From Psilocybe cubensis (taxonomy: Eukaryota), in assembly GCA_017499595.2 (NCBI GenBank), contig CM039001.1, positions 2,728,001 to 2,792,000 of the forward strand: 64,000 nucleotides of DNA, written 5' to 3'. A program made the translations under genes and the position numbers. The notes under the pieces are model-generated. The model saw nothing but the letters and a program-made list of their open reading frames with translations. It did no database searches and was not told where the DNA came from. This document shows positions 7,263-58,089 of the stretch, in pieces. Position 1 is the first letter of the stretch; each line of letters begins with the position of its first letter.

Positions 7263-9696
7263 CTAGTCATGGTGGTCACTAGTCTCTTCATCTTCCGTAG
7301 AATGCAATGCCTGCAAAATTTGTTCTTGACGGAGCCACTTCTCTGGTGGTGTGAAGTACCAACAACAGACGGCGAAGATAGTGATGCTCCCAAATATGAC
7401 ACATGCCTACGTTCAAGATCATAAATGTGAATCAAATAATTCAAAGAGAACACCCACGAAGTTGAAGTTCTCCGCAGTGACAGGGAAGTAGAAAGGGGAG
7501 AGCATGACCTAGACGAAAACTAAGACGCAAAATACGCGTAAATAAATGTGGTACTTACGGATACAACCAAAGCATTGAACAGAATGGTTACAAGATAGAA
7601 TAACTTTCTATACTTGCCAAGGTAGAAATAGGATGTTTTAAAACTGTTCGGGGTCAGGGTAAATCGCAAGAGAGCAATTAAACCGTAAGCCGCAATCGTT
7701 GGGACACCACCAGCAGAGACGAGCGACGTAAACGCGACTTGACTAGGCAGAATGCTGCAAAGAAGTGTAGCTGCAAAAAGATAGATGACCGTGACCGCAT
7801 GTTTAGGTTGCCCTTTTTCATCGACCTGCCCGATCCATTTCGACATCGGAAGCACACCATCGCGAGCGACTGCAAATACCAAGCGAGAAGCTGCCACAAT
7901 GGCGATGCTGGTGTTCTAAAAGGAAATTAAGTCACCAAAGGACAAAAAACTGGCTCGTATTTACCAAGATCAGGCCAATGACAGCAATGATAGTCATGAA
8001 GATGCTGGCCCTCTTTCCCAAAGCAACAGCGTAAAGCTGAACAAAAGGCTGAGGAGCGTTGGTAGCAAAGAAGACATCGAGGCTGGGAGTACAGAAAAGG
8101 AAAAGTATTGCTGTTACGAATCCCAAGACGCCAGTAGCGATGGCGCTTGACAAAATACCCTTTCCTGCTATGACTCTGATTATATCGCTGAGTATCTGAA
8201 TTGTAACGAAATTAAAAAATGCATAAATACCTTGCATTCTTGGTTTCTTCTGCGATGTGACCAGAGGCGTCAAATCCGGTCATTGTCCCAGCAGTGAAAA
8301 GGCTAAGTTACTGGTCATTAAGGTGAACAGTTGAGGCAAACAAAACACACACAAAGATAAAATCCAATTCCAACCAGGAGGGGCACCAGTTTCGTTAGCT
8401 GTACAAATTATGAGATCGTGATTTCTAAGTTAGTGTCTGTCCACATTACCTGTCTGGAGGAATACATCATGTGCAGATCGGAAACCGTACGTTTTCGACA
8501 CCCCAATGGGAAGCCAGATCAAACAAAGGAAAAAGTCCAGCATCATGATAAAGATAGACGCTCGGAAGACAAGAGAGTATACCCGTGGCGGGAGATAATT
8601 GATGGCAACCGCGAGTAGCAGCAGTCCTTCCGAAATGACCCAGATCAAAGACCGCCACTTGATGTTGTCGTTGCCGACACCTCCAGGATAGTCAACGTCC
8701 CAAACAGCTAGTTGGGAAACGATATAGTTGGCAGTTGTCTGGGAAAAAATTCTTAGCACAGAGTCAAGGCCAATTTCAATTGCGCTGGCAGACCTGACAA
8801 TTTCCAGCAACAAATGTCATCCAGGCGGTGCAAGACCACCAGGCAACTGTAAACCCAAAGAACCTAGCGTATTTGGGACCAGCACTCTCAGCGGCCCAGA
8901 TATAGATAGACCCGCTGAGTGGTAGTGCCGAACATATCTCAGCCAAAACGGCTGCTGTGATTGTCATAAATACTATAGTGATCAGATAAGAAGACCTGAG
9001 CTATATAAGCAAGGGGGTGGTAGCAAACAAAAAACACTGTCACCATATTGCAGCAGGGCCACCCGCTGATAAACCAAGAAAAATAGCCGATCTTGAAGGC
9101 AAGATAAGCGCCTGAAGCGTTTCCTAATAAGGGATATATCCATACCTAACTCCCCCAATAAAGTTTAAAGCACAGAAACTCGCAGCAAAACTCTCGACGA
9201 TGCTCCATGTACGATGAAGTTGCTGCAAGTGCATATTGTAAACTGGGGAAGAGCACTCGATACTGTGACAACATAACTTACTTGTTTGTATCCAAGGCTT
9301 TGCTATCAAAACCGCATGTTAGTGGTCCATGAACATCTTCGAGAGGGTAAAAAAGAACGATGACACTAGGAGGCTTCCCTACGCAGGTATAAGCGCTGTT
9401 CAGGTTCAGGCGGTATGATCTCAATCGTCCTGTGATTGTGTCTTGCTCCAAAACGTATGCGTTTTATCATATCGTTACTAGTTTAGAACAACACCAATCA
9501 CAGTCGGATACCCGCAGCCATGCCAGTGATCACCAGTTGAACGTTACCGTTGAAGCAGCTATCTTTCTCGTAGGTCATCTCCCAGGCACGTCTTTAGCAC
9601 AATTACCAATTGAAGCTCGTCCTGGTTTGTGGGAGGAGTTGAACCTGTTTCTTGACCTGCAGCCGACGCGGAAAATTTTGTATCAACGGAAGACAT
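7263..9696 (-). CDS. APC-superfamily permease (GABA/choline permease-like; probable thiamine or thiamine-precursor transporter, Thi9-like)
   Basis: DELQLQSLGYKQQLHRTWS, VLAEICSALPLSGSIYIW, GFDASGHIAEET, AASRLVFAVARDGVLP; many TM segments; TPP riboswitch in intron 1. Confidence 0.9.
9361..9532 (-). promoter_or_regulatory. TPP (thiamine pyrophosphate) riboswitch in intron 1 of the APC permease
   Basis: Minus strand reads GGCT-GCGGGT...TGAGATCATACCGCCTGAACCTGAACAGCGCTTATACCTGCGTAGGGA-AGCC. P1 GGCT/AGCC (extended by CACTGG/CTAGTG), P2 GCGG(G)T/ACCGC, long P3 CTGTGATTG/CAATCACAG, UGAGA junction, P4 CCT/AGG, P5 CAG/CTG. Confidence 0.93.
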
Positions 9697-9772: not shown

Positions 9773-10077
9773 TCACGGAACATTATTTGTCAGCACAAAG
9801 AACCGCGTGGGACCGTGTGGCGGTTGGAGCTAGAAAAAAAAAATCAGCTCCCCACTTCCACTGCCAGGTACACAAGGCACCGTGCCTGTGTTCTACATGA
9901 TTGTAGATAGCATTCGGATGGATCAAAGTAATAAAGGCAGTGATATAGTTGATGTGAATATATATATGAAACAAGCGGGGAATATCTGAGGCACATTCGA
10001 AAACAGGCAATTTTTTGCGATTTTACATTAAAGATCGAGTGGCACTAACGCGCACTGACTTACTGACACTCCTGAGT

Positions 10078-13000
10078 CTAAGGGATTCCAAAGCGCTAAA
10101 TAATCAATTATTAGAAACAGACGGAGATGACACTGCACATGAAATTACATACAGATTTTAATCCACGGATAAGGAGCCATTCCTCGTTGGAAACATCAGC
10201 CTTGAAAGATGTCTGCAAACAAATAGTAAGATAAGGAGTACGTTGAAGCATAGAGCCAAGTATACCTTCAATACGTCAATACTTTGGCGAGTGATATGAC
10301 TCAGAATTTCATCCTTTTCGTCGAAGTGACGGCCGAACATCTTTGCGGATTGATAAACAGCATGCTCGATTTTAACAGCAACACCAGCTCCAGCCTGAGA
10401 TTTTTTAACAATCTAGAGAATATTTTTTGTAAGGTTTCAGAAGGCAATATCGAGGAACAAATGCCACTTGCATCATAGGTCTTGTGGTTGATTTCCAACG
10501 ATGTACTAAAAAAAGTCAACAATTAGTCAGTAATTTGTTTCATAAGGGCGTACATCTTTCCAAGGTCAATGATATCTTTCTTCCCGGTAGTAGGATCGAT
10601 CTTCACGACACATAACGGTGTACCAATTCGCAATGATCCATCGAGAATGTCGACTCCAAGAATGATCGGATCTCGCTTACAAAACGCAGCGATTACTTTT
10701 AGACGACAGGGCCAAACGGCCTGAGGAGCAGCGTCTCTTCTTTTGGCTTCTGTAATTTCTGCGTTATATGCTTTGAAGGAGTCGAACAAGTGATAGATAA
10801 TATCGGCTAGTTGTAATTTTAGCACGCTTGTACCGCTACCAAGCGATAAACACAAAGTCATACCTTTGAAGAGACGGATACCCATTTCTTCGGCCAAACG
10901 CTCAGCTTCTTTGTCGATAGGAACGTCGAAGCAGAGAATACAAGCAAGTTCTTTGGCCTTTTCTAGCATGGTTGAGGCGCGCATGACATCTCGTTTAAAC
11001 ACGGGACCGATGTTGATTCCAGATACGGGGATTTTGCTGCTCTTTAAGAAATCCAGCAGAGCCTCGAGCGAACCCAAAGTGGACGCCTGTACACAAACAC
11101 CGCGGCCCGACTTGTCGATGTTTTCAAAGAGCGTAGTCAGATCAGACATGACTTCCTCCTTTAGTTCATCCTCATCGTCGTCTGGCCCAACGACAAGCAG
11201 GCGAGAACCAGCAATTGCCTTTTCCAAGTCCGGGGCGGTAATCTTGACACCAAGAGCTGCCTTAACCTCTTTATGATGAACGTACGCAGACTGAGACCAA
11301 GGTCAGAATAATCAGCCATATTACGATATCTCATGCTTACTTTAATACGAAGTTCGCGCAGGGGTTGCGGTGTCAGCAGTGCCCTGACTTGCGTTACGAT
11401 AGGTCCGTTAAGACCACAGACAACAATTTTATCGCCTTCGCGTAAGATGCCATTCGAAAGGACTACATCAATTGTTGTGCCAAGACCTTCAATGACCTTG
11501 ACTTCCAAGACAGTACACTCCAGCTCGGAGAGGTACATCAAACGATCGCTCATACGTTGTTGCGTCAAATTGACGAGGAGCATAATCATATCTGGCACAC
11601 CTTCTCCTGTGATAGCTGAGGTAGGCACCAAAGAAACATTGCGACCAAGGTTCTTGTTTTCGTAGTAAAGGCAAGCGTTGAGACCTTCTTCAGCAAAAGC
11701 CAATATGGTTTTAGACACCCGATCTTCAAATTCACGCTGCACAGAGCGGGACTGTTTGGCCAAAGACTCCTGGAAAGCACCGTCTGGTGTGGCATCCCAG
11801 CCATAAATACGATCGATCTAAAGAATAAAATGAGACCTGAAATTCGAGTTCACAAGGGAATTCCATACGCACTTTGTTGAGCGCAACTATAAATGGAGTT
11901 TTGCGATCTCGCAGAAGCCGCAGAGATTCGAGCGTCTGAGCTTCCAAGCCATGCATGATATCAACAACTAAGATGGCAATATTACACAAAGAACTTCCAC
12001 GAGATCGCAAGTTAGTAAACGACTCGTGTCCCGGTGTATCAATAATCAAAAGACCGGGAATCTTATATTCTTGTTGATTTTCCTATAACCGATGGCCTCA
12101 GAAGAAGATGCGATAACAAAAGAACAAAAGAATAATATATACCCTGTTGAGGACAGCAGTCTTCGTCTTGATTGCATCAACGGGGAAGTACGTAGCACCA
12201 ATCTGTTGCGTGATACCTCCCGCTTCGCCTTCTTGGACGTTGGTTTGACGAATCTGTTAGATAGGGTTAAAATCAGAAAATTTTCAAGTTACAAATTCTT
12301 ACTTTATCCAGCAATTTAGTTTTACCCGTGTCGACATGACCCAAAATACAACAAATAGGGCTGCGTAGATTGTCTTTACTCCTAGCGGCCAAAGCTTCCT
12401 GGTGTGCTTTTGCACGGCGGGCGGCTGCCTCGGCCTTCTTCTGCGCAGCCAACCTTTGGGCAGAGGTCAACTCGTCTTCAGACGAAGAATCATCGGAGTC
12501 AGAATCAGAATCCTCGTCAGAGTCTTCCGAGTCTTCCTCTGAAGAAGATTCTTCTACTGGTGGCTTAGCAGACGGAGCAGGCGGTTTAGTGGAAAGGCCT
12601 TTGACAGTTGTAGATGGTGCAATCTTTCCAGAGACAGGTTTTTCTGTCTTTGGAGCAGGGGCAGATATTTTCGATACGGGAACTTCCTTGGGTGCAGTTT
12701 TCGCTGCTACTTTCACAGTGATTGATCAGCGAAGTCAAGTAAGCAAAACTTTTACAACTTACCAGGTCTCTCATCCACTTCCTCTTCCTCACTTGTTGCA
12801 TCCCAGGAGTCTTTGATGTTGGAAGCTACAGGAGGCGAAGGCTCTTCGTCAGAGCTTGCTTCCCAGTCAGATTTTGGGGCATCATTAGTTTCTTTTGCCG
12901 CCGCCGGCGTAGATACTCTGGCCACCATAGGCTCTGGCGATCGCGGCCGTGAGTGAGTTGGAGATTGATCCTTAGCTCCAGGCCCTTTTTTCTTGCGATT

Positions 13001-55683: not shown

Positions 55684-58089
55684 ATGGCTTCAACTTCGAA
55701 ACAATACACTTGGGAGGAAATTGCACAGGTTTGTCCATTGTATATTGTTTAATCTTCAATTGTTTTTCTGAGCACCCGCGTTGGTAACAAACTACAGCAT
55801 AACAAGGAGGGGGATGTGGTGAGTTGATAGCCAATGAACTCTGGGACAGACTCTCAGTGTGGCTTTAGTGGGTTGTCATAGATGCTAAGGTCTATGATCT
55901 CACCAAGTTTGCCAATATGCATCCTGGTGGTCCCAATGTAATATACGCAGAATCTGTTGGTGCGTCTTAGCTCATGATTCTCCACAGGTTCGAGAGTTAA
56001 TTAGCTCTTTGGTTAGCTGGGAAGGATGCCACGCAAGTATTCTTTGGTCTGCATAGACACGAAGTGTTGCTACGTCCACAATACGCACGTCTTCAAATCG
56101 GTACGGTGCAAGGCGAGACGGAACAGATCAAAGCCCCCGTTCCGGGGGCGCTGAGCAAAGTACCATACGGTGAACCAACGTGGCTCAGCCAAGGGTACTT
56201 CAGTCCTTACTACTCAGAAAATCACCGTAAATTTCAAACTGCTGTGCGAGAGTTCTTTGAGACGGTTGTCAAACCTGAGTCTGTGAGGTGTGAGGAAAGC
56301 GGGAAAAGGATATCGCAGGAAGTTGTGGACAAAATGGCGTATGTCTTGTTTTCTCGTTCAATGGGAGGAGCCGCGTGTTTTATTCAAACTCCATATCTAG
56401 TGAAACAAACATCATTGCCATGAGGATGGGCCCAGGGAAGCATTTGAAAGGGCGTACTCTGATGGGCGGAATAGTAAAACCAGAAGAGTTTGATTATTTC
56501 CACGAAGTACAATTTTATCTCTTAAAACGTGGACTTCTTTTAAAGCATTTTATTTTAGGGTATTATCCATGCGGAGCTTGCTCGTGTCAGTAGCAGAGCA
56601 GTGGTTGACGGTCTTTTGGCGGGTTTGGTTATTGGTTTACCGCCAATTCTAAACTATGGCAATCCTGAGTTATACGATAAAGTTGTAAACGAAGTATGTG
56701 AGACAAATGTTTTGTCGATCAGCCATCCTTACAAAGATATACAGACTCTTTCTGGCAAGAAATTCCTTGCTCTTGCTATCAGCGAAGCATTTGCAGGCAG
56801 CGATGTCGGAGGTCTTCAAACCACTGCTGTACGTGATGGAGATTACTGGATTGTCACTGGAACCAAAAAGTACGTGCATAAATATCTAAATCATACAATC
56901 GTTGACATGGAGCCACGAAGATGGATTACAAATGGGACCTTTGCAGACTATTTTACAACCGGCTGCAAGACAGAGGTGAACATATATTTATAACTTCTAA
57001 CAGTTGGATTCTGACTACCTGCAAAAGACCGGATTCACTGTCATACTGATCGAAAGAGGACCTGGGGTGGAGACAAAGCCCATCAAGACCGCATATTCGT
57101 CGGTAGCTGGTACAGCTTATGTGACTTTCAACAAGGCATGCCTGGATTCTATTAATTGTGGAGAATTTCCGTGACGTCGCATGTTCTAGGTCCGAGTACC
57201 TGTTGCCAATACACTGGGCAAAGTTGGCGCTGGCATGTCGGTCATTCTATCTAATTTCAACCACGAGCGATGGATGGTGTGTGGGACTTCGATCGCGGCT
57301 CAGCGACTGGCTGTCGAAGAATCTTTGAAGTACGCGAATCTTGATTGACAAAACCTAAAGCCACATTGTTGACTCCGTTATCAGGTGGTCAACACAGCGC
57401 ATTGTTTTCGGCAAACCTTTGACATCCCAAGCAGTGATAAGAGCCAAACTTGCAACCATGATTTCTAGAGTAGAAGCATGTCAGAATTGGTATGAAAGCA
57501 TAACATACCAGATGAACCAGGTACGATTCCTTTTGCCGAATATTCCACTAAGTTCGCAACTGAGGTGAAACCGTCGTCTACAAGATGACCTATGCTCAAC
57601 AATCTGATAAATTGGCGGGTCCTATTGGTCTGCTCAAACAGTGCGTTCTTTCTCACCGATATCGAGTATTTTGGTGACATTCGGTTCACTATCCGACTCC
57701 AGATTCATCAGCAAAGCAGGGCGCGAGACGGCCGAAGGTATTTAGTCTGAACTTACTGGTGTGTACTGTTGCTGATATTATCTTTTTGTAGATGCAACCC
57801 AGGTGTTCGGCGGACGGGCACTGACTGTAACTGGAATGGGTAAATTCATCGAGAATGTAAGTTTATCCTTGCGGGGTTGCCTGAGATATATTTGCTCAAC
57901 TTGTATTTTTTTTGCAGTATCACAGGACATCTGGATTCGATGCTAGTCAGTACCTTATCGCGTCAATATGCTTTGAATCTTTAACTGATATTCTTTCTTA
58001 ATACAGTTTTGGCTGGTGCAGAAGATGTACTAGGTGACCTTGGTGTGCGGCAGGCGTTGAAGAAAATGCCTCGTGACGCACGACTATAG
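55684..58089 (+). CDS. Cytochrome b5 domain-acyl-CoA dehydrogenase fusion
   Basis: YTWEEIAQHN...WVVIDAKVYDLTKFANMHPGG (cyt b5), then LAISEAFAGSDV, GTKKWITNG, FNHERW, QRIVFGKPL, QVFGGRA, LAGAEDVL. Confidence 0.93.

Follow-up and report, generated by a model that had tools for sequence, protein, structure and literature searches.

A conserved thiamine pyrophosphate aptamer in the first coding intron of an amino-acid-type permease gene of Psilocybe cubensis and its proposed role in splicing

Introduction

This study analyzed a 64,000-nucleotide (nt) stretch of the genome of the basidiomycete Psilocybe cubensis (GenBank assembly GCA_017499595.2, contig CM039001.1, positions 2,728,001 to 2,792,000), hereafter called the window, in whose coordinates all positions are given. 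Its subject is a thiamine pyrophosphate (TPP) aptamer in the first coding intron of a minus-strand permease gene, and the proposed action of this element as a riboswitch on the splicing of the permease message. A preliminary description, made from the sequence alone, had drawn attention to the aptamer and had proposed that the gene encodes a transporter under direct metabolite control. To our knowledge, few riboswitches occur in eukaryotes, and a small number of these have undergone testing.

Published statements are cited in this paper from excerpts of the respective sources. The Schizosaccharomyces pombe protein Thi9 transports thiamin and is akin to amino-acid transporters (Donovan et al. 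2018). The same authors, citing Moldovan et al. (2018), report that basidiomycete Thi9 orthologues carry riboswitches and that this group "remains to be experimentally characterized", which agrees with the remark in the preliminary description that riboswitch-linked transporters had been predicted in basidiomycetes before. Mukherjee et al. (2018) found TPP-riboswitch-regulated amino-acid transporter genes to be widespread in Basidiomycota and described, as "not experimentally observed", a "Type III" arrangement in which an internal intron 200-400 nt long carries two donors separated by a stop. A survey in ACS Omega (2024) named the group TPPsw-AA, reported it as most prevalent in Basidiomycota, and stated that the long P3 stems of fungal aptamers defeat the generic model.

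Results

An amino-acid-type permease gene with a long first intron

The features of the locus are listed in Table 1. Removing intron 1 at 9606/9303 left 12 exons that read as an uninterrupted open reading frame (ORF) of 535 amino acids (aa), and the Pfam domain AA_permease_2 (PF13520) matched three exon ORFs with E-values down to 9e-13. The host gene is therefore of the type described for the THI9-group/TPPsw-AA class, an amino-acid-type permease of the APC superfamily in a basidiomycete. The deposited P. cubensis protein P0001, named "putative amino-acid permease", was 100% identical to the window gene over its largest exon, and agaricomycete relatives have been deposited under amino-acid or gamma-aminobutyric acid (GABA) transporter names, as the preliminary description had expected. 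The residues DQDELQL-xSLGYKQ-QLHRTW spanned the first two junctions in the window model and in the full-length proteins P0005, P0070, P0041, and P0057; P0005 lies on a 1,801-nt contig and must consequently derive from an intron-free message. Exon 2 is a micro-exon kept in relatives and flanked by the riboswitch intron and a 59-nt intron.

The boundaries that had been proposed for intron 1 were recovered (donor GTAATT at 9606, CTAAC at 9322-9318, acceptor TAG ending at 9303, 304 nt in all). Its exceptional length was likewise borne out, since the remaining ten introns measure 48-59 nt. Each of these ten appeared as a CT..AC joint in contigs from runs X1 and X2, and none did so in the full-length contigs from X3 and X4. 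The RNA label of X1 and X2 is a guess only; we took both runs to be RNA-derived because their contigs lack the ten introns present in X3 and X4 and leave intergenic stretches uncovered. At 8211, within intron 8, the full-length X3 and X4 contigs carry an A>G difference from the window.

Table 1. Positions of the permease gene, intron 1, and riboswitch features in the window, with the related loci that lack the aptamer
Feature	Position	Strand	Basis or remark
Permease coding region, 12 exons, 535 aa	7263..9696	minus	ORF spliced via contig joints; Pfam AA_permease_2; exon identity to P0001
Start ATG; stop TAG of permease gene	9696-9694; 7265-7263	minus	
Exon 1, 30 codons, ending ...NQDELQL	9607..9696	minus	DELQL-xSLGYKQ join as in full-length P0005, P0070, P0041, P0057
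Exon 2, 21-nt micro-exon (QSLGYKQ)	9282..9302	minus	contig joints and relatives
Intron 1 with riboswitch, 304 nt	9303..9606	minus	contig/ORF reconstruction; 284-409 nt at same position in relatives
First donor (S1), GTAATT	9601..9606	minus	needed for productive mRNA
Alpha-like element, CUGGGAGAUGACCUACGAGA	9566..9585	minus	complementary to 3' strands of P4, P1, and P0
In-frame TAG met when S1 is unused	9559..9561	minus	
Second donor (S2), CGGTAACGT	9541..9549	minus	GT at 9547-9546, 59 nt past S1
P0 5' strand, helix extending P1	9523..9538	minus	duplex -13.7 kcal/mol, z -2.78
TPP aptamer, P1 to P1'	9372..9519	minus	motifs, helices, relatives-only model
P1	9519-9516/9375-9372	minus	standard pairs
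P2, 5 pairs and consensus unpaired G	9515-9510/9416-9410	minus	
Extended P3 stem, 86 nt	9424..9509	minus	hairpin fold, z -4.53
UGAGA (J3-2)	9423-9419	minus	
P4	9404-9401/9381-9378	minus	
P5	9398-9394/9387-9384	minus	
Alpha' (P5-3', P4-3', P1-3', start of P0-3')	9367..9387	minus	contested by alpha-like element and P0/P1 5' strand
P0 3' strand	9356..9369	minus	
Branch-site consensus ACTAAC	9318..9323	minus	ACTGAC/ACTAAC kept in relatives
Acceptor AG of intron 1	9303..9304	minus	
No aptamer	L001, L003, L021		spliced RNA-like contigs
No aptamer	L004		aptamer-less relative, short first intron
No aptamer	L008, L012, L035, L051, L054		contigs end too close upstream
No aptamer	L045, L046, L071-L076, L078		distant intron-less homologues, 23-36% identity
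No aptamer	L042		plain 60-nt intron after ...DELQL

Intron 1 contains a complete aptamer

The aptamer was found complete at exactly the position originally given for it (9519-9372), and all canonical helices from P1 to P5 form with standard pairs. The J3-2 UGAGA and the P2/P3 pyrimidine-sensor helices of an RF00059-type aptamer are present, and the P4/P5 pyrophosphate-sensor motifs ACCUGA and GCGUAGGGA match at every conserved letter. A search for the core pattern gave a single match in the window and none in any of 100 shuffles. A covariance model trained on 35 relatives, with the window left out, returned 140.4 bits for 9540-9343 (E 7.2e-38), against 5.9 bits for the runner-up in the 64-kb window.

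In the unconstrained minimum-energy fold, the P2 5' strand GCGGGUAU (9515-9508) pairs with the P5 3' strand AUACCUGC (9389-9382). This fold has -47.5 kcal/mol, compared with -43.0 kcal/mol when P2 has its canonical partner, and it is a possible ligand-free conformer in these calculations.

The aptamer is conserved in relatives

When an alignment of six relatives was used to scan contigs from metagenomes, 80 related loci were recovered. The relatives-only model placed the aptamer at the same site in 61 of them, always on the plus (gene) strand, and 26 of these lie outside the training set. A regular expression for the core matched 60 of the 80 loci, always on the gene strand and 62-195 nt before the protein match, with 0 matches on the other strand. 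An intronic aptamer on the gene strand, conserved in orthologues, is what characterizes the THI9-group/TPPsw-AA class. In all 20 relatives scanned against Rfam, RF00059 was the sole match, with scores of 26.4-51.4 bits, none of which reached the cut-off of 54.3. The best-scoring relatives, L043 (51.4 bits, the maximum of the set; E 3.7e-07) and L009, were aligned in the P1-P2-P3 register put forward in the preliminary description.

The alignment of 35 relatives contains 46 invariant columns, against a mean column identity of 58%. The core helices were paired in 97.6% of cases across relatives, compared with 40-60% when the partners were slid; isolated changes were compensated in L040 (P2) and L043 (P1) and were otherwise wobbles. 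The P3 stems of relatives are 55-144 nt long and unrelated in sequence, and they nevertheless closed end to end in 47 of 49 distinct copies (mean folding z -4.19; z < -2 in 42 of 49). As judged from these alignments, real covariation resides in the length-variable parts. The comparison supports the reading that the first coding intron of this APC/AA_permease_2 gene houses a conserved TPP aptamer.

The tree built on the largest exon (58 rows) gathered all aptamer bearers in one 50-row group. Nineteen of the 80 loci lack the aptamer (Table 1); L004 was placed just outside the bearer group, and the distant homologues were placed on very long branches. One aptamer-less locus, L042 (L042:817-1260), is nested among the bearers; its first intron, placed at the same codon, is a plain one of 60 nt, apparently through clean loss of the whole riboswitch insert. 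This nesting suggests that the riboswitch is an insert in an otherwise ordinary intron, and the tree indicates that the insert is ancestral to the orthologue group and has been lost at least once.

Two donors, a closing helix, and an upstream element surround the aptamer

Relatives also keep the parts of the presumed expression platform, namely, the first donor after ...D-x-L-Q-L, the two P0 strands, the branch site ACUGAC/ACUAAC, and the acceptor, together with an ACCU-GC-GG element approximately 21 nt beyond the first donor and a near-invariant AUCGGUAACGUC outside the aptamer. The arrangement in the window is that of Type III, a 304-nt internal intron with S1 at 9606, a TAG at 9561-9559, S2 at 9547, and the acceptor at 9303. 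Only splicing from S1 to the acceptor yields the 535-aa ORF; using S2 or retaining the intron leads into the stop at 9561-9559.

Among 59 sequences whose P1 is locatable, 54 carry a second donor of the GGTAACGT type; the motif was absent in two truncated contigs and in the clade of L036, L057, and L080. The latter three have a shorter S1-P1 distance and carry GGTGAC/GGTGAT in the P0 5' strand in place of the GGTAACGT donor. Where both donors could be placed (51 sequences), use of S2 would produce an in-frame stop in 39 and a frameshift in 12; the values for L047 in this tally stem from a mis-picked motif.

The helix P0, which extends P1, differs in sequence among relatives and was retained as a structure (mean z -2.51; z < -2 in 29 and < -1 in 39 of 41 distinct copies), with swaps such as AGUGGAAA/UUUCCACU and AUGGCGA/UCGCUAU. 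Between P0-3' and the branch site (approximately 9355-9325 in the window), a hairpin whose sequence varies is present in most relatives, for example, CCCCGUU..UUGGGGG, CUCCUUACGAGGAG, and GCUCCUACGGGAGC; this hairpin is weak or absent in the window.

RNA-derived contigs show three isoforms

Among the related loci, L001 is a fully spliced RNA contig. In the RNA contig L021 the first donor is passed over; the contig agrees with genomic L061 at 100% identity as far as the last base ahead of GTAACG and is then joined to the LGYKQ exon, with a TGA in the retained piece; S2 is thus used as a donor in a relative. L002 contains intron 1 whole and, relative to genomic L051, has lost all the small introns. 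In P. cubensis, a 1,730-nt X1 contig spans ten junctions in spliced form and continues without a break from exon 2 through the acceptor to 9467, and a second X1 contig extends from 9713 through the first donor to 9558. The X1 cover has a gap at 9468-9557 and X2 is uncovered above 9222, which we treated as holes and not as evidence. RNA-derived contigs hence comprise a fully spliced form (relative), an S2-spliced form with a premature stop (relative), and a form retaining intron 1 (relative and P. cubensis). The retention in P. cubensis comes from one run of one study with unspecified growth conditions. The productive S1 join in this species is predicted from homology.

Pairing tests favour a candidate upstream element over masking of S2

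In the Neurospora crassa gene NCU01977, the 3' side of P1 is bound, without TPP, by an element located fewer than 60 nt downstream of the productive donor (Li & Breaker 2013); the pairing loops out the internal donors and brings donor and acceptor together. The Type III model instead has the aptamer sequester S2 at low TPP. The complementarity of S2 and its flanks to the 3' half of the aptamer was the same as that of shuffles (mean z -0.02; 0 of 33 loci < -2), and such sequestration is consequently not supported by these calculations.

The alpha-like element in 39 relatives was tested against the 3' strand of the aptamer, and the mean z was -1.24, with values < -1 in 22 of 39 and p<0.05 in 10 of 39. 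The element begins at S1+20 to +25 in 27 of the 39, and its sequence varies between clades. It fitted the tail of its own clade best in 29 of 35 loci, compared with 25 of 35 for the P0/P1 5' strand used as the positive control, and the observed mean was reached in 0 of 2000 permutations. The tests therefore favour a predicted long-range pairing of the NCU01977 type over masking of S2.

Annotation errors, the upstream gene, and other observations

The deposited model P0001 has 447 aa and begins at residue 89 of the 535-aa model, an internal Met in exon 5; 88 residues at the N-terminus, the LGYKQ micro-exon among them, are therefore missing, and transcripts retaining intron 1 are the likely cause of this shortfall. 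The Cyclocybe aegerita protein P0002 (587 aa) begins with RIEIIPLEPEQSSYLRREAS, the aptamer core translated as protein, which marks it as a mis-called model and demonstrates that the aptamer is conserved in a named genus. A search for further gene models that translate the aptamer, made with residues 1-62 of P0002, returned P0002 alone.

The next gene upstream, on the same minus strand (9936-11000 and beyond), encodes the translation initiation factor eIF5B and is expressed, with an X1/X2 contig depth of 59-79. Fusions of eIF5B and the permease, 1,490-1,800 aa long, have been deposited for 35 of the 120 relatives listed, which indicates that the two genes keep this order throughout Agaricomycetes and are merged by gene callers. 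We considered whether the aptamer belongs to the 3' end of eIF5B and rejected this assignment; neither X1 nor X2 covers 9789-9895, and exon 1 has a contig to itself. Elsewhere in the window, a sub-threshold match to the C/D-box snoRNA snoZ103 was recorded on the minus strand at 56334-56421 (27.3 bits against a cut-off of 44; E 0.5).

Discussion

The findings indicate, with a probability that we put at roughly 0.85, that the window element is a functional TPP riboswitch of the published basidiomycete THI9/amino-acid-transporter group for which control of splicing is proposed. The riboswitch probably controls splicing of the permease message. The P. cubensis locus is a well-supported new example of an already described type of switch.

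Several results weigh against this reading or against parts of it. The RF00059 check, which the preliminary description had proposed, gave no gathering-level match; the window scored 23.4 bits against the cut-off of 54.3 (E 0.031 on 701 nt, E 2.8 window-wide). The low score arises because P3 is 86 nt long, and the cmscan alignment skipped this stem and chose a false P1/P2. Rfam alone is insufficient to establish the window aptamer. The core helices are near-invariant, with one pair changed on both sides and a covariation of 0.071 versus 0.064 that 16 of 500 shuffles equalled, so that compatibility with the helices is demonstrated and covariation is not. No P. cubensis contig carries an S1 or S2 join, retention is the sole form seen there, in one run, and contigs cannot show absence of a form. 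Moreover, the RNA-like contig of the aptamer-less L004 (L004:1-300) retains an 83-nt first intron with the others removed, and intron retention alone is thus no proof of riboswitch control.

The remaining adverse results concern the switching mechanism. The accessibility of S1, S2, the branch site, and the acceptor was compared between free and aptamer-enforced folds and showed no consistent shift, with p values of 0.65, 0.64, 0.21, and 0.59, respectively (n=32); this result likewise lends no support to sequestration of S2 by the aptamer. The whole S1-S2 segment showed weak pairing with three partner regions (mean z 0.0, -0.31, and -0.96), and three bearers of the aptamer (L036, L057, and L080) have no S2 motif. 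In the window, the pairing 9585-9566/9387-9367 is weak (-18.9 kcal/mol, z -1.54, equalled by 7.3% of shuffles), and because the loci are related, the permutation tests overstate their independence. A candidate element of the NCU01977 type lies 21 nt after S1, supported by the pairing statistics and the clade fit among related loci and weak in the window, and the modelled long-range pairing stands at about even odds.

A decaying relic or chance look-alike with no regulatory role in P. cubensis would account for a Rfam score under the cut-off, and L042 demonstrates that the gene can do without the aptamer. Such a relic would hardly keep every binding-site motif intact, however, and the invariant columns, the score of the relatives-only model, and the conserved flanking platform elements all speak against this explanation, which we regard as extremely improbable.

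The mechanism that we propose for the basidiomycete THI9/amino-acid-transporter riboswitch is a compact two-helix toggle, to which we assign slightly less than an even chance. One 3' strand (P4-3'/P1-3'/P0-3') would be contested by the element on the S1 side and by the P0/P1 5' strand on the S2 side, and TPP would select the donor that lies at an ordinary-intron distance from the branch site. At low TPP, the element at 9585-9566, 21 nt after S1, would pair with the 3' strands of P4, P1, and P0 at 9387-9367; this pairing would loop out S2 and the aptamer and bring S1 near the branch site, giving productive mRNA. At high TPP, the aptamer would close with P1 and P0 and free the upstream element. 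The closed stem would place S2 at its foot, at an ordinary-intron distance from the branch site, and splicing would move to S2 or fail, resulting in a premature stop and less transporter.

Two other ways of operating the same riboswitch have to be weighed against this toggle. In one, the switch would mainly gate S1, deciding between removal and retention of the intron, and S2 would be a constitutive minor or fail-safe donor. Retention is indeed the form observed in P. cubensis and in L002, the three S2-less loci carry the aptamer all the same, and in Candida parapsilosis DUR31 thiamin raises unspliced RNA while a second donor is used with and without thiamin (Donovan et al. 2018). The conservation of S2 in 54 of 59 sequences and its actual use in L021 argue against a merely accessory donor, and S2 sits at the base of the covarying P0 stem, a position suggestive of a tie to aptamer closure. 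Gating of S1 also overlaps with the toggle, which permits both outcomes, and we judge it somewhat unlikely as the main mode. In the other, which would follow NMT1 or Type III, the P4-P5 strand would mask S2 without TPP, and TPP would unmask it. The architecture agrees with Type III, masking by P4-P5 has been validated for NMT1/THI4 and plant THIC according to the literature excerpts, a near-invariant S2 would suit pairing with an invariant aptamer strand, and a small duplex of CGGUA..GUC with GAU..UACCG recurs. The absence of excess complementarity between S2 and the 3' half of the aptamer nonetheless makes masking distinctly improbable, as do the loci with ACACCG for AUACCG, in which S2 shows no compensating change.

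The host protein is Thi9-like by analogy, with the link to Thi9 orthologues taken from Donovan et al. (2018) citing Moldovan et al. (2018). On account of the riboswitch link and this literature, the most likely cargo would be thiamine or a thiamine precursor. A real riboswitch could also govern a transporter for something other than thiamine itself, either a pyrimidine or thiazole precursor or a GABA- or choline-type amine merely tied to vitamin B1 status. The deposited names say amino-acid or GABA transporter, and Mukherjee et al. (2018) suggest that such transporters may be multifunctional; against this, the TPP-riboswitch-linked fungal transporters tested so far according to the sources excerpted (DUR31 and the family of Thi9 itself) all move thiamin, and we consider a different cargo unlikely. 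The locus marks a likely vitamin-B1 importer in P. cubensis, a fungus of current biotechnological interest.

A literature search for Psilocybe riboswitches returned one unrelated review only, and the texts consulted nowhere mention the P. cubensis locus, with Moldovan et al. (2018) and the supplements of the surveys outside the reach of the search. The present additions are three isoforms documented in natural transcripts, an invariant second donor, the stem P0, and the annotation errors caused by the intron, and some of the added detail (isoforms, second donor, P0, and upstream element) may already be in print. The candidate long-range switch, which is unlike the mechanism assumed in print, would be a further addition on the basis of our models. 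The generic Rfam cut-off missed all 21 of the 21 copies scanned, and surveys therefore need fungal models. The annotation errors linked to the intron comprise the P. cubensis model without 88 residues, the Cyclocybe model that translates the aptamer, and the eIF5B fusions. Together with its relatives, the locus offers a compact testable map for the THI9/amino-acid-transporter class, with two donors, a stop, the P0 stem, and a competing element. If the proposed switch is true, the RNA contigs from metagenomes would give this class, until now a prediction, its first evidence from natural transcripts, and a switch of approximately 300 nt would be small enough for reporters.

Comparison with known systems

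The locus resembles the published THI9-group/TPPsw-AA class in having a TPP aptamer with a long P3 in an intron of a basidiomycete APC-type "amino-acid transporter" and in its predicted control of splicing. The class as presented in the excerpts is a computational prediction, to which the present analysis adds isoforms in RNA contigs, a second donor, P0, and an upstream element. With Type III of Mukherjee et al. (2018), it shares an internal intron of 200-400 nt (304 nt here), two donors with an in-frame stop between them, and one acceptor past the aptamer; it departs from that model in that the data point to an S1-side element pairing with the 3' strand of P1/P0.

The validated N. crassa genes NMT1 and THI4 are alike in that a TPP aptamer governs the choice between two donors. 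Their introns lie in the 5'-untranslated region, with upstream ORFs and masking of the proximal donor by P4-P5, whereas the intron in P. cubensis lies in the coding region and the S2 complementarity test gave masking no support. In C. parapsilosis DUR31, which has been validated (Donovan et al. 2018), the effect of thiamin on unspliced RNA recalls the retention observed here; that gene belongs to another transporter family, comes from an ascomycete yeast, and has a non-consensus, unregulated second donor.

The logic of the proposed switch matches that of NCU01977 (Li & Breaker 2013), which has been validated. In both genes the coding region of a transporter is split by the intron that holds the riboswitch. 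The candidate element in P. cubensis, like the conserved one of NCU01977, follows the productive donor within fewer than 60 nt and has predicted complementarity to the 3' side of P1, and internal donors would loop out. NCU01977 encodes a DUR31/urea-type transporter and has an intron of 550-900 nt, partners approximately 530 nt apart, and several alternative donors. P. cubensis has an APC permease, a 304-nt intron, a separation of approximately 200 nt, and one alternative donor, and its contested strand adds P4-3' and P0-3'. The P. cubensis switch may thus work like that of NCU01977 outside the NCU01977 family; if it does, loop-out control, so far known from NCU01977 alone, would also operate in a second, unrelated transporter family.

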